Positions 28,128 through 45,416 of a stretch of DNA of 60,000 nt are shown here, piece after piece. Location: the NCBI GenBank assembly GCA_044892525.1, contig CM097885.1:29142001-29202000 (forward strand), read 5' to 3'. The notes under the pieces were generated by a model, which saw only the letters and a program-made list of their open reading frames with translations, was not told the DNA's origin and made no database searches. The DNA is from Schmidtea polychroa. Lineage: Eukaryota. The first letter of the stretch is position 1, and each line of letters opens with the position of its first letter. A program made the position numbers and the translations under genes.

Positions 28128-29769
28128 CGAATTTTTCCATCGGTCTCGATTCCCCTACATTATGAATGAACTCGAAAAATCTGACATTATCGCGTGCATG
28201 ATCTTTAATGTTTTGTCATTATATAAATAATGGTGAATGTCTCTTTATGTTTATATTAATAGAATTGTTCGATTTCTTTGACTGTGTTAATAGTAAGCGC
28301 GATTTTTCGTGGTTGATTTGAATGAAAAAGTGATCATGAGGATATAGTATGAGCTTAAATGTCGTCCCTCTGGACCAGGGTCGGACTGAATCATGTGTGT
28401 AGAAATGGGTTAGACCTCCTAAGGCACTATGGAACCCGAACCGAGAAGGGGTTAGGAGTAGTCCTAAGGCAGGGGCTCACCTGCTAACCTCTTCCAACCC
28501 GTGTGGGCAGTACCAACGTGGAACATCACCACGGGCTCATACGTGGGAATATTTGTATGATCATTTGGAGTATGTAAGGGAAGTGTCTGAGCGGAACGAT
28601 GATGCTTTGTAGGTATGACAATCATGTATGTACATTTTTCTTCTCCCACATACGCCAACACTAACTAACGCCTTCAATCATGCTACCACTCGAAGATGAT
28701 ACCAAGTCTTTTTCGTCAAATTAATTTTTTTGAATTTTTAAAGTACTCTTGGTCTCACCACCTACCATGGTTCACCTGGTGACCACCGGTACAAGTACCG
28801 ACTATCTCCAGACGACCACGATAGATGGGTCAACCCATATTTAATTTTTGATAATAATATCCAAAAGAAATAAAATTATATAGTAAAATACGTATGAAAT
28901 ATCAAATCATTATTAATAAAAATTTACCCAGCGACCATATTCTTTGTCTCTGCATATGATGCACTTGATTTATCTGTCATTTAATACATTGGCATACTAT
29001 ACCCAACTCTCATCTCATCTGCAATTTCTTTTTCCGGTTTAAATCTGCCGTCGGGATGTTTACCTCGTTCTATTGATGCCATTTAATCTCGCTCGGATTT
29101 ATATTTCAGTATATCGGTCTCGAAAATCATTATTGCCATCATCATTGTCATCTCGCTAACTCTGGCGATCATATGCAGATGTCCCAAACAGTACCGTCAC
29201 TGGATCTGTGAAGAGAGAAAATCGAATGATACAAGTTGATATAATATTTGTTTATGACAATTACAGTTTATGTTAAATCATCGTAAATACAATAAAATAT
29301 CATAAAATATAATTTTACTTTTTACTCGATGCGTCTGTTAAATGGTTCTGGATAAAAATTCGTTTGATCTCCCGAAGCTGAAGTTATGAGTAGGTAATTA
29401 GGAGCTCTCTGCTGCAACTTTTGATTACGCAATTGCTGCAACTCACATTTTTTGCTTTCAGGGATTTTTGGTCCAAATTTTTTTTATCAGACTATACAAA
29501 AGTCCGACTACCACTAAAAAAGCATGGAATTTTCACACTATAGTGAGGGGGTCTCGATGGTCCTGGGATTTTCAATACAAAAAAAAAAATTTTTCAATAC
29601 AAAAATCCGACTACCACTAAAAAAGCATGGTAATTTAAGGTCTCAGGATATTTTCAATACAAATAGGTGGTCTACACTAAAAAAGCCAAGGATTATTCAC
29701 ACTATAGTGAGGTGAGTCTCCTTGGCCCTGAGAAAAAGGTGGTCTACACTAAAAAACGTGGTAAATTTT

Positions 29770-30180
29770 TTCAATTAAAGTAAATAATGGTCCTAAAAAA
29801 TTAAATTACAGTAAATTATGGTCAAAAATTTAGAATTACAGTAAATTATGGTCCAAATTTTTCAATTACAGTAAATAATGGTTCTAAAAAATAAAATTAC
29901 AGTAAATAATGGTTCTAAAAATTAAATTACAGTAAATTATGGCTCAAATTTTTAAATTAAAGTAAATTATGGTCCAAATTTTTCAATTAAAGTAAATCAA
30001 TGTCCAAATTTTTGAATTAAAGTAAATAATGGTTCTAAAAATTAAATTACAGTAAATTATGGTCCAGATTTTTCAATTAAAGTAAATAATGGTCCAAATT
30101 TTTAAATTAAAGTAAATTTAGGTTCTTAAAAATTAAATTACAGTAAATAATGGTCCAAATTTTTAAATTAAGTAATCAAT
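29770..30180. repeat. ~30-bp tandem array in the left arm (mirrored at ~43280-43870)
   Basis: Unit AGTAAATTATGGTCCAAATTTTTCAATTAC with variants. Confidence 0.9.
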
Positions 30181-30539
30181 GGTAAAAAATTTTAAATAAG
30201 TAAATTAAAGTAAATTAAAGTAAGATTTTAAAATTTAATTACAAAATAATAGAAGGTGTTTGAGAATTGAAATTTTTTAATGAAAATTTTTATGAAATAA
30301 TTTTTTAAGTTAATTTTTAATGGAAATTTTTCGAAATATTTTTCAATGGTAATTTTTAATGGAAATTTTTATGGAATAATTTTTTAAGTTAATTTTTAAT
30401 GGAGATTTTTATGAAATATTTTTCAATGGAAATTTTTAATGGAAATTTTTAAGATAATTTTTAATGGAAATTTTTATGAAATATTTTTCAAAGACAAATT
30501 TTAATAATAATTCAACAACAAACCAACAACTTAGTTCCA

Positions 30540-32160
30540 ACAACCAGTAAATTACGAACATGTATTTACAACCAGATACCTACAACTAGTTACTAACAAC
30601 CAGTTACCTACAACTAGATACTAACAACTAGATACCAAGTACCTACAACCACCTACACATTAACTAGCTACCAATTACTAACAACCAGCTAACAACTAAC
30701 TACCACTTACCAAGTACATACAACCACCTACCAAGTACATACAACCAACATCAACCAGGTACTAAGCATTAATTACCAACTACTAAGTACCTACCAAGTA
30801 CCTACAACCACCTAACAAGTACTAACAACCAAAAACAAGCAACCAACTAGGTACCAAGTACTTACAACTAGATACCACGCACTAATTAACTCTCAAACAA
30901 CCTGATACCAAGTACTTACAACTAGTTACTTACAACCAGTTACCAGATACCAAGTACCTACAACTAGTTACTAACAACTAGTTACCTGATACTAAGTACC
31001 TACAACCACCTACCAAGTACATACAACCAACATCAACCAGGTACTAAGCATTAATTACCAACTACTAAGTACCTACCAAGTACCTACAGCCACCTAACAA
31101 GTACTAACAACCAAAAACAAGCAACCAACTAGGTACCAAGTACTAACAACTAGCTACCACCTACCAACTACTCACAACCGACAACAACCAGCTACTAAGC
31201 ATTACCAACCACATACAACCTACAACTAGTTACTAACAACTAGTTACCTGATACATACAACTAGATACTAACAACCAAAAACAAGCAACCAACTAGGTAT
31301 CAAGTACTAACAATCAAAACATGCAACCAACTAGGTACCAGATACTAACAATCAAGTAACAACTAACCAACCAGTTACCTGATACCAAGTACTTACAACT
31401 AGTTACTAACAACCAGATACCTACAACTAGTTACTAACAACTAGGTACCTGATAGCAACCAACTAGGTACCAGATACCAAGTACTAACAACCGCCAACAA
31501 CCAGATACCTACAACTAGTTACTAACAACCAGTTACCTGCTACTAAGTACCTACAACCAACTAGCTACCACCTACCAAGTACCAACAACCACCTACCCAT
31601 TAACCAGCTACTAAGTACTAACAACTAACTACCACCTACCAAGTACCAACAACCAATATCAACCAGGTACTAAGCATTATTAACCAACTACCAAGTACCT
31701 ACAACTAGATACTAACAACCAAAAAACAACCAACCAACCAGTTACCTGATACCAAGTACTTACAACTAGTTACTAACAACCAGATACCTACAACTAGTTA
31801 CTAACAACTAGTTACCTGTTAGCAACCAACTAGGTACCAGATACCAAGTACTAACAACCGCCAACAACCAGATACCTACAACTAGTTACTAACAACCAGG
31901 TACCACCTACCAAGTACTAACAACCAACTAGCTACCACCTACCAAGTACCAACAACCAATATCAACCAGGTACTAAGCATTAATTACCAACTACCAAGTA
32001 CCAACAACCAAAAACATGCAACCAACCAACTAGGTACTAGATACCAACTACTAACAACCGACAACAACTAACTACCACTTACCAAGTACCAACTACCAAA
32101 TACAAGATACCTAGTACTAAGCACTGTCAACTAGATACCAAACACTTACAACCAGATGAC
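30540..32160. repeat. C/A-rich complex satellite in the left arm (G/T-rich mirror at ~42240-42930)
   Basis: Shuffled motifs CAACTAG, TACCAAG, TACTAACAAC, CTACAACC with extreme strand skew. Confidence 0.9.
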
Positions 32161-43800: not shown

Positions 43801-44147
43801 TTGAAAAATTTGGACCATAATTTACTGTAATTTAATTTTTTAGGACCATTATTTACTTTAATTTGAAAATTTTACCACGTTTTTTAGTGTAGACCACCTT
43901 TTTCTCAGGACCAAGGAGACTCACCTTAATTTAATTCGAAAAATCCATGCTTTTTTATTGAAGACCGCCTTTTTCTATTGAAAATATCCTGAGACCTTAA
44001 ATTACCATGCTTTTTTATTGAGACTGTCTTTTTGTATTGAAATTCTCAGGACCAAGGAGACCCACATGAATTGAACTAAAAAAATCCATGCTTTTTTAGT
44101 GTAGACCACCTTTTTGTATTGAAGTTCTCAGGACCAAGGAGACCCAC

Positions 44148-44601
44148 TTCACTATAGTGTGAAAAATTCCATGCTTTTTTAGTGGTAGTCGGATTTTTGT
44201 ATAGAAAAAAATTTTTTGTATTGAAAATCCCAGGACCATCGAGACCCCCTCACTATAGTGTGAAAATTCCATGCTTTTTTAGTGGTAGTCGGATTTTTGT
44301 ATTGAAAATCCCAGGACCATCGAGACCCCCTCACTATAGTGTGAAAATTCCATGCTTTTTTAGTGGTAGTCGGATTTTTGTATTGAAAAAAATTTTTTGT
44401 ATTGAAAATCCCAGGACCATCGTTTTTGTATTGAAAATCCCAGGACCATCGAGACCCCCTCACTATAGTGTGAAAATTCCATGCTTTTTTAGTGGTAGTC
44501 GGATTTTTGTATTGAAAATCCCAGGACCATCGTTTTTGTATTGAAAAAAATTTTTTGTATTGAAAATCCGAGGACCATCGAGACCCCCTCACTATAGTGT
44601 G
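44148..44601. repeat. Subterminal ~80-100-bp tandem array in the right arm (fewer copies at 29500-29720)
   Basis: Unit AGTGGTAGTCGGATTTTTGTATTGAAAATCCCAGGACCATCGAGACCCCCTCACTATAGTGTGAAAATTCCATGC containing the palindrome CACTATAGTG. Confidence 0.92.
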
Positions 44602-45416
44602 GAACAATTGCGTAATAAAATCGTGGAACAATTTAATTGTTCCAGCGGGCTACTAACTACCTACTGTTATGAAAATTAATTTTCCTTTATTGAAATTTAG
44701 AAGTCTGTACTGTAAATAAATTTTTTAGGAGTTCCTGTTTTAGAATTTCGATAGTTCCTATAAAAGCTTTGAAGGTCCTGTAGTAGAATTTTGAAAGTTT
44801 ATGTTTGTTAAAAATCAAAATTTGCAAGTAATAGAAAGTTAATAATAATTGAAAATTAGAAACTAATTGAAAGTTGAGGGAATCAACCAATTGTCTACCT
44901 TATATAGAAATTTTCGTCCAATTAGGACTTAGCTAGTGTGTATTTTAATATTTTTTCTTATTTTTTGTGCTTTTAACTGCTTTTCTTATATTATTTATTT
45001 GTTTTCTTTTGTTAATTTATTTAACAACTTAATTTATATGTTTTTCCTTTTTTTTGTTAATTTCTGTTGGTAATTATATTTGTAATTTGCTGTTTTCCTT
45101 TTTCTTTGTTTTTATTTATTGTTTTATGATGAATTTTTATTTTCTTGTTTATATTTTAATCTCCTGGTATTTATTTTTATTTTACTTAATTATTTTTTTT
45201 GCTTGTTCGTTATGGTTGTGTGTTTTGTGGTTTTTTTGTTATTGTTCATATTTTCTATGATCTAGTTTTAATTGCTTTCTTATTATATTATTTTTCTCCT
45301 TTTTTATTATTTATTTTTCCTACACTTGGCTGATTCACTCAATTTTACTTAATACGAGATTTATTTTTAACTAATTTATCAAGAGGGGAATTTTAACGAT
45401 TTATTATTATTTTGTT

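Follow-up and report, generated by a model that had tools for sequence, protein, structure and literature searches.

The DNA analyzed here (the window) is a stretch of 60,000 nucleotides from Schmidtea polychroa (NCBI GenBank assembly GCA_044892525.1, contig CM097885.1, positions 29,142,001 to 29,202,000 of the forward strand), in which a long palindromic element without genes was found at positions 29389-44665. This element possesses the ends of complete Polinton/Maverick transposons of the same genome, referred to below as the helper, as well as their 6-bp integration signature. It belongs to a family of gene-less palindromes and has traded sequence both with other members and with the helper. 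On every testable feature the element fits a non-autonomous Polinton derivative, and the shared ends and hybrids suggest that it is mobilized by the helper enzymes. The element is probably a satellite, itself non-autonomous, of a Polinton/Maverick family that has expanded recently, and its symmetry is probably renewed by fold-back copying, in part within the chromosome. A sequence-only reading of the window had likewise proposed that the element is non-autonomous and bears the integration signature of Polintons/Mavericks; this is borne out by the duplications and by the ends shared with complete Polintons.

The element is flanked by an exact duplication of GTTATG, as that reading had stated, and the match between the flanks was 6 bp without extension to 8 bp. 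Two paralogues of the older dispersed repeat hosting the insertion were found to fuse the left and right flanks with an overlap of exactly 6 bp. One of these empty sites contains a single GTTATG, as anticipated, and the other a single GTTACG. In addition, a 530-nt contig of public run X1, which may be the source sample, spans the left junction with 0 letter differences. The contigs of runs X5 and X6, both from one study, contain the left flank with 7 differences; their match ends at 29389, past which they run 255 and 239 letters, respectively. These contigs are compatible with an empty allele in other animals, and the insertion may be polymorphic.

The palindrome had been described as inverted arms of ~7.1 and ~7.3 kb around an 880-bp loop. 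The lengths held (Table 1), but the arms were not uniform, as near-identity was restricted to the inner ~2.1 kb. In the self-comparison, the best inverted match was between 33572-36447 and 37328-40154 (93.5%). The identities between the arms were 99.5-100% in the eight 250-nt bins of 34389-36388, seven of them consecutive and six 100% identical. Outside this inner block they ranged from 69 to 98% where the arms align and were lower in the satellite block. The satellite blocks are mirrored in both arms with unequal copy numbers, and the mirror (AAT) copy at 41861-41896 is inside a 403-bp direct duplication (41392-41794 / 41861-42263, 98.5%). The GC skew flips at the element centre and also changes sign inward of 35880, the end of a 66-bp inverted pair within the left arm (33004-33069 / 35815-35880), which probably remains from an earlier fold-back or inversion event. 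The ends of the element are AGTAGGTAATTAG... on the left and ...CTAACTACCTACT on the right. They agree over 8 nt only and differ at nt 9, 14 and onward. Their AGTAGG...CCTACT termini have AG at period 3, which is not the exact (AGT)2 motif (PMC8097293). As identity is confined to the inner arms and the tips are unlike, a displaced strand would form a perfect stem of ~2 kb plus a bulged stem, not the clean ~7-kb panhandle that had been suggested.

No genes were found in the element, in agreement with the earlier claim that it has no credible open reading frame. The longest ATG-started frame has 63 codons, and the subterminal tandem repeats contain the two stop-to-stop frames, which are 128 and 156 amino acids (aa) long. 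Autonomous Polintons/Mavericks are defined by encoding a protein-primed DNA polymerase B (pPolB) and an RVE integrase (PMC5499653). Both were missing from the element in a search with 12 helper proteins, none of which matched at E<0.03, and so was the capsid module (ATPase, protease and capsid proteins) that is present in the helper. A coding relic was rejected, as the same tblastn search returned one match with E<1 (E 0.032), which was judged to be a chance match. A structured RNA was also rejected, with 0 Rfam matches in the element.

The family and its gene-bearing helper

The 17-nt end pattern of the family had 2,524 forward and 2,519 reverse matches (5,043 in total) in the 781-Mb genome, compared with 1 and 0 for the control. 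A search with the loop returned 1,308 first-look candidates, which are not copy numbers and 40 of which were scored. For a census, 28 facing pairs were picked out among the first 100 of the listed ends (on C1, up to 11.9 Mb), one pair being completed via a variant left end. Twenty-one of these pairs were read; the seven left out were six of >18 kb and one of 13.3 kb. Ten of the 21 elements were gene-less palindromes, five contained pPolB in both arms and two were complete Polintons. The rest were two single-arm monomers of 7.1 and 7.9 kb, a deletion derivative with the capsid module only and a satellite/helper hybrid. By a rough extrapolation from ten per 11.9 Mb, the genome probably contains several hundred gene-less palindromes.

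The integration signature recurred among these copies. The 6-bp duplication was exact in 15 of the 21 sampled elements, including both monomers, and in 23 of 30 paired elements, and 115 of 121 flank hexamers were distinct. The further copies with different duplications that the sequence-only reading had called for were thus found. The length of the gene-less palindromes ranged from 10.9 to 17.5 kb with a median of 15.9 kb (n=17; pairs >18 kb excluded), to be compared with 16.1-17.1 kb for the helper; one of the sampled gene-less palindromes is 17,507 bp long (L131/L132). These lengths are suggestive of the padding to a packageable length that had been proposed, although the sample was cut at 18 kb and forms of 7-8 kb are likewise integrated with perfect duplications. 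Among the 40 scored matches per search, the copy at 29389-44665 had no near-identical sibling, and its closest relative changed by segment, with identities of 96% in the loop, 97% in part of the inner arm and 88% in the outer arm. A 2.35-kb mini-element bearing both family ends was also observed at C1:131903952-131906305 and C41:5947-8300.

The expected autonomous element sharing these ends was identified as complete Polintons of 16,061, 17,077 and 16,575 bp, which have the family ends, including identical 28-nt end types, and their own duplications. Their proteins include pPolB (PF03175, E 1.7e-32), an rve integrase (E 1e-8), an adenain protease (E 1.4e-5), an A32-like ATPase and an adenovirus-X-like protein (Adeno_PX). 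They also include a 158-aa TBP-like protein (PF00352, E 3e-16; L155:2168-2641 on the minus strand and L092:6982-7419 on the plus strand). Moreover, a 407-aa helper protein without a Pfam match was closest to capsid clusters in which 24-30% of the members have a double-jelly-roll domain (score nearly maximal). Of 150 scored ATPase matches, 129 had the top score with 100% identity, and the helper has therefore expanded recently. Four tandem ATPase genes with a spacing of 4.0 kb at C1:213933340-213946016 form a head-to-tail array of part of the helper.

The element resembles the helper over a terminal inverted repeat (TIR) of ~1 kb with 75-77% identity, in addition to some subterminal repeat similarity. 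One 28-nt end type occurs in a helper as well as in three gene-less palindromes, and also in a palindrome whose presence is inferred from a pair of inverted ATPase genes. The earlier description of the element as an 'all-TIR' derivative was not upheld, as the likeness to the helper TIR is limited to about this terminal 1 kb and a little of the subterminal repeats. The helper interior was also rejected as the source of the inner arm and loop, with which it shared one 35-bp match only. A piece of the inner arm was found at 74-75% identity in two pPolB palindromes.

Proposed fold-back copying, recombination and competing explanations

All five inverted pPolB pairs chosen for inspection were palindromes with exact duplications and arm identities of 98.7-99.8%. 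One of them belongs to a second Polinton family with ends AGTAGTATG (L107/L108, C1:235383158-235396433), in which the 13.3-kb pPolB palindrome has arms 99.7% identical and the duplication TACACT. Moreover, a lineage of pPolB palindromes was found at five loci: C3:32532201 (L109), C1:139677856 (L113), C1:2663675 (L127), C1:9092710 (L146) and C1:9481751 (L151). They are 11-15.5 kb long, contain pPolB in both arms without integrase or capsid genes, and are 99.4-99.9% identical to each other in pPolB versus 98.3-98.7% to the helpers. They have a common deletion, related centres and a 6-bp duplication of their own at each locus. Palindromes therefore move as palindromes, given that the deletion is common to five loci. 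This lineage is a candidate self-copying, helper-integrated replicon.

Other pPolB palindromes turn around inside pPolB or just before it. Fold-back limited to the pPolB half was ruled out by five inverted ATPase pairs among 150 scored matches, one of which had the duplication ATTACC and matching tips. C2:2383585-2400094 (16.5 kb) and C1:216068162-216085594 (17.4 kb), each with two inverted ATPase genes and matching tips, are probable capsid-half palindromes. Among the gene-less copies the turn-around point also varied (L162, L096-L099), and the loop of L162 is a sequence that is arm in the copy at 29389-44665. A loop-proximal block with identity of at least 99% was present in 11 of 15 gene-less copies, the length of which ranged from 1.5 kb to the whole arm; three of the remaining copies were diverged throughout and one was patchy. 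The arms of L139/L140 are identical over their whole length. Different from the pPolB-half palindromes, the arms at 29389-44665 are not a copy of one helper half. Another palindromic family is probably represented by L105/L106 (C1:152391362-152403431), a nested element of 12,070 bp that has a third type of end, the duplication TACAAT and a 157-aa frame in both orientations.

Recombination among the arms was assessed with 12 arms, 165 informative sites, the four-gamete test and 1,000 permutations. Incompatibility rose from 0.25 at distances <50 bp to 0.46-0.48 at >800 bp, and 0 of the 1,000 permutations were as low. The distance correlation between non-adjacent arm segments was r 0.15-0.21. In two outer segments of the element at 29389-44665, 23 of 35 and 43 of 55 arm differences had both alleles among other copies. 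The arm identities in the diverged segments were 91.6 and 92.5%, near the between-copy means of 94.2 and 91.7%. These results indicate that its outer arms derive from different lineages. In-place mutation was rejected as the source of the divergence, since most differences are shared polymorphisms. Exchange also reached the helper. In hybrid L137/L138 (C1:4717073-4732320), a satellite arm and part of the loop are fused to the capsid/integrase half of the helper, with 99.8% identity to the helper near the junction, the duplication TTTATA and matched tips. Hybrid L160/L161 (C1:264279500-264291152) is a helper with a satellite arm at one end.

The tips followed a pattern of their own. Although 63 tip types were found among 115 ends, the first 28 nt were identical at both tips in 23 of 30 elements, versus 2% of random pairs. 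Three siblings that are ~99% alike beyond 2 kb have three different tip types, and both tips match in 2/2 siblings with two ends found. Moreover, a subterminal inverted motif was complementary in 71 of 78 scored ends, compared with 32 expected if independent (44 of 122 ends were unscorable). This suggests that the subterminal hairpin works in single-stranded DNA; conversion between repeats could also yield the complementarity. Given that a perfect duplication persists with unmatched tips in the copy at 29389-44665, either two types of tip are acceptable to the integrase or one of the outer arms has been replaced at the insertion site.

We propose a mechanism of four steps. Insertion of the element would very likely be carried out by the helper integrase. 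There is a good chance that the helper protein-primed polymerase would copy the element as a linear molecule with origins at both ends. This step is suggested by the shared origins, a terminal AG repeat suiting a jump-back start, the matching of tips and the spread of the pPolB-only palindrome. The displaced strand of a palindrome would fold instantly to a hairpin and restore a double-stranded origin, which would favour the palindromic shape. Symmetry would probably arise, and be renewed, through fold-back copying: a central 3' end would fold onto the other arm and copy it outward. The expected products are loop-anchored identical blocks of varying length, shifting turn-around points and palindromes of either helper half. 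Fold-back would occur at least sometimes within the chromosome and probably in the mobile phase too. Finally, there is a strong chance that recombination among family members would swap outer arm segments, after which the tips would usually be re-matched. Fold-back from the centre and outer-arm exchange would together give high inner and low outer identity, and the copy at 29389-44665 would represent a state in which the inner 2 kb are matched, the tips are unmatched and the perfect duplication is retained.

Several results weigh against this interpretation. Simple fold-back from an aborted strand predicts that the outer arms are best matched, and the opposite was observed; as the outer arms are less alike than the inner ones, recombination must be added to fold-back. 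Every copy studied is integrated, and free linear or hairpin DNA was not among them. Seven of the 30 paired elements had no exact duplication, nothing in the helper matched the inner arm and loop beyond the single stretch of 35 bp, and no microhomology was found at the L137/L138 junction. The C/A versus G/T skew of the arms is not mirrored at the four-fold sites of the helper genes and appears opposite to that predicted from deamination of a displaced 5' half. In addition, the integrase frame is in two pieces, split at the same place, in 6/6 helper-type copies (L092, L094, L126, L138, L143 and L155), a split that is probably not due to random decay. Finally, the host flank was mirrored at the opposite end in 3 of the ~33 elements with flanks seen: C1:66325381, C1:88708214 and C2:104875401. 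The mirrored flanks measure 198 bp (100% identity), 1,556 bp (99.9%) and, in tandem-repeat DNA, at least 541 bp (97%). The element with the 1,556-bp flank is gene-bearing, and beyond its mirrored flank lie 28 bp of the tip and the duplication TTTCAT, indicating that synthesis ran past the end of one arm after insertion. Chromosomal repair is thus a contributor to the symmetry, and arm-to-arm copying after insertion could explain much of it without pPolB.

A further-reaching interpretation, which is possible but doubtful, is a multi-part system that is still active. It would consist of the helper, pPolB-only palindromes, capsid-half palindromes and a gene-less hairpin satellite near capsid length, which would replicate extrachromosomally, swap halves and tips by strand annealing and be co-packaged. 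The gene-less form would be a helper-dampening defective-interfering satellite of an endogenous animal DNA virus. If true, intermediates of Polinton replication would be preserved, as a fossil series, in the integrated copies.

The mirrored flanks, which prove in-place arm-to-arm copying in three elements, also speak for an explanation that uses the Polinton integrase without pPolB replication and that we regard as unlikely. In this explanation, the element is excised and reinserted with host gap repair. All symmetry and mosaicism would then arise from post-insertion break repair, through fold-back synthesis from breaks near the loop and ectopic conversion among thousands of copies. Loop-anchored identity suits breaks at a centre prone to hairpins, potential genomic donors are most numerous for the outer arms (5,043 ends), and the hybrid junction is non-homologous. 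Tip matching, however, is difficult to reconcile with it: siblings that are 99% alike differ in tip type, yet the tips match within 2/2 two-ended siblings, and those of hybrid L137/L138 are matched despite halves from different parents. Moreover, the pPolB palindromes, with frames of up to ~1,300 codons in both arms, at five loci suggest a benefit in replication.

Only a slim chance is given to the possibility that the element is a non-autonomous foldback-type member of a different DDE superfamily that generates 6-bp duplications, with ends that are merely Polinton-like. Its satellite-filled long arms are reminiscent of Foldback-type elements, and most of the arm has no helper counterpart. However, identical 28-nt tips, the ~1 kb TIR and direct hybrids are shared with complete Polintons. 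The sampled gene-bearing elements carry Polinton genes, and no other transposase was among the listed frames between these ends, for which a genome-wide search was not made. Least probable of all, and very unlikely, is an assembly or chimeric-read artefact. It might be suspected from the near-perfect identity of the inner arms and from the difficulty of sequencing long inverted repeats. Against it stand the unique flanks, which differ from each other and bear a 6-bp duplication, the empty sites among paralogues, the left-junction contig, the divergence of the outer arms and the many copies that have duplications of their own.

The family bears on how Polintons replicate, as Polinton replication in animals has so far been inferred from adenovirus and phage. 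The family supplies natural replication products, including fold-backs of both helper halves, hybrids, monomers, mosaic arms and re-matched tips. It makes Polinton replication testable, in a genome with a recently expanded helper and a possibly polymorphic insertion. Furthermore, an animal genome can retain hundreds of palindromes of 11-17 kb, which can also mirror host flanks, and gene-based Polinton surveys overlook gene-less palindromes.

Coordinates and neighbouring features

The features of the element and of its insertion site are given in Table 1.

Table 1. Features of the palindromic element and its insertion site (window positions)
Feature	Position	Strand	Remarks
Older dispersed repeat hosting the insertion, left part	29100..29388	+	Resumes at 44666
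Left 6-bp target-site duplication GTTATG	29383..29388	+	Single copy in paralogous empty site
Whole element, gene-less palindromic	29389..44665	.	15,277 bp
Left arm	29389..36447	+	7,059 bp; C-/A-rich on + strand (GC skew -0.30, AT skew +0.17)
Left terminus	29389..29460	+	GCTGC-motif end type; without the C-run/G-run hairpin of most ends (z 0.19)
Terminal stretch in common with gene-bearing Polinton TIR	29389..30500	+	~75-77%; contains 30-bp repeat array 29769-30205
C/A-rich degenerate satellite block	30567..32157	+	14/21/42-bp units; mirror 42233-42890 shorter
(AAT)55	32414..32578	+	Mirror copies 41311-41427 and 41861-41896
66-bp stretch	33004..33069	+	Inverted partner 35815-35880 (85%), same left arm
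Loop-anchored near-identical block	34389..36447	+	99.5-100% to mirror per 250 nt; three short repeat-unit indels
Loop	36448..37327	.	880 bp, unique, non-coding, 16% G+C; up to 96% match in other copies
Right arm	37328..44665	-	7,338 bp; G-/T-rich on + strand; outer part from another family lineage than left arm
Mirror of identical inner block	37328..39326	-	Partner of 34389..36447
Expanded subterminal 81/100/129-bp repeat units	44005..44601	-	~420 bp more than left arm
Right terminus	44594..44665	-	End type GGAACAA...TTGTTCC; subterminal hairpin fold (z -3.08)
Right 6-bp target-site duplication GTTATG	44666..44671	+	Exact match to left copy

Three host genes were found in the window: one on the minus strand at ~5100-12600 with a WDR19/IFT144 exon (E 6e-46) and more exon-like frames nearby, one with a proteasome-subunit-like frame at 45417-46121 (minus strand) and one with an ENT-domain (EMSY-like) frame at 54777-56132 (plus strand). 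A 443-aa frame at 6247-7578 (minus strand) had no Pfam match and by eye is DNA-transposon transposase-like. The related frames at 21991-22785 (minus strand) and 27367-28127 (plus strand), of 160-260 aa and with a CxxC start, are probably an unclassified repeat; the first had no Pfam match. Finally, a 306-bp unit is repeated in tandem at 56725-57980, in 4.2 copies that are 75% alike.

Comparison with known systems

Similar to complete Polintons/Mavericks, as described in passages of PMC8097293 and PMC6431247, the element has a 6-bp duplication and AG...CT ends with a short terminal repeat. In the passages concerned, intact vertebrate Polintons are 16.9 +/- 1.7 kb long and have TIRs of 46-1,447 bp (PMC8097293). 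The length of 15,277 bp is near this range, and a TIR of ~1 kb is shared with the complete element in this genome. Different from complete Polintons, however, the element has no genes, its arms are ~7 kb long, its ends are AGTAGG instead of (AGT)2 or (AG)3, and its two ends are unlike. A jump-back start at terminal repeats is described in parts of PMC4974454 and PMC8097293, and the latter also states that Polinton particles have not been observed. Gene-containing 2-kb TIRs and elements without polB appear in passages of 10.1101/2025.02.07.637071. Palindromes of the present type are not mentioned in those passages or in those of 10.64898/2025.12.11.693146 and PMC7829209. In the open literature (subscription journals and Repbase being outside the scope), no study devoted to palindromic non-autonomous Polintons, hybrids or arm mosaicism was found.

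Fish provide the closest parallels. Zebrafish non-autonomous Polintons with multi-kb arms and a short spacer were reportedly described by Kapitonov and Jurka in 2006 and in Repbase. In Chinook salmon, a ~20-kb insertion with a 10-kb palindromic sequence was assigned, in the passage concerned, to a Polinton-1 transposon (PMC2584663), and the name Polinton-1N1_DR is used in a passage of PMC9341505. Palindromic Polinton derivatives are thus already in print, in passages that are annotations made in passing, and the kind is little studied. The element is similar to these fish derivatives in being a Polinton palindrome. The passages on them do not include a copy census, arm mosaicism, a helper hybrid, a single-arm monomer or a palindromic lineage with pPolB only; the likeness is one of kind.

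Palindromic phi29 amplicons and yeast hairpin plasmids are known as snap-back or palindromic by-products of replicons with terminal proteins or inverted terminal repeats. Snapback genomes of adeno-associated virus (AAV) are treated in part of PMC10924063, and phi29 subgenomic molecules are attributed to template switching in a passage of PMC4974454. As far as these passages describe them, the AAV and phi29 snap-back products resemble the present family in the inverted duplication of one end, the variable turn-around and the dependence on helper proteins. They differ in that members of the family are integrated with duplications, are inherited and have been amplified as lineages; moreover, the gene-less arms are mostly unlike the helper interior. 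By analogy, the element would work like a snap-back defective genome; it is not a member of those virus families. Finally, miniature inverted-repeat transposable elements (MITEs) and Foldback-type elements are likewise non-coding, self-complementary, high-copy and moved in trans. In comparison with MITEs, the element is 30-100 times longer and is linked to a virus-like helper that has a polymerase of its own.

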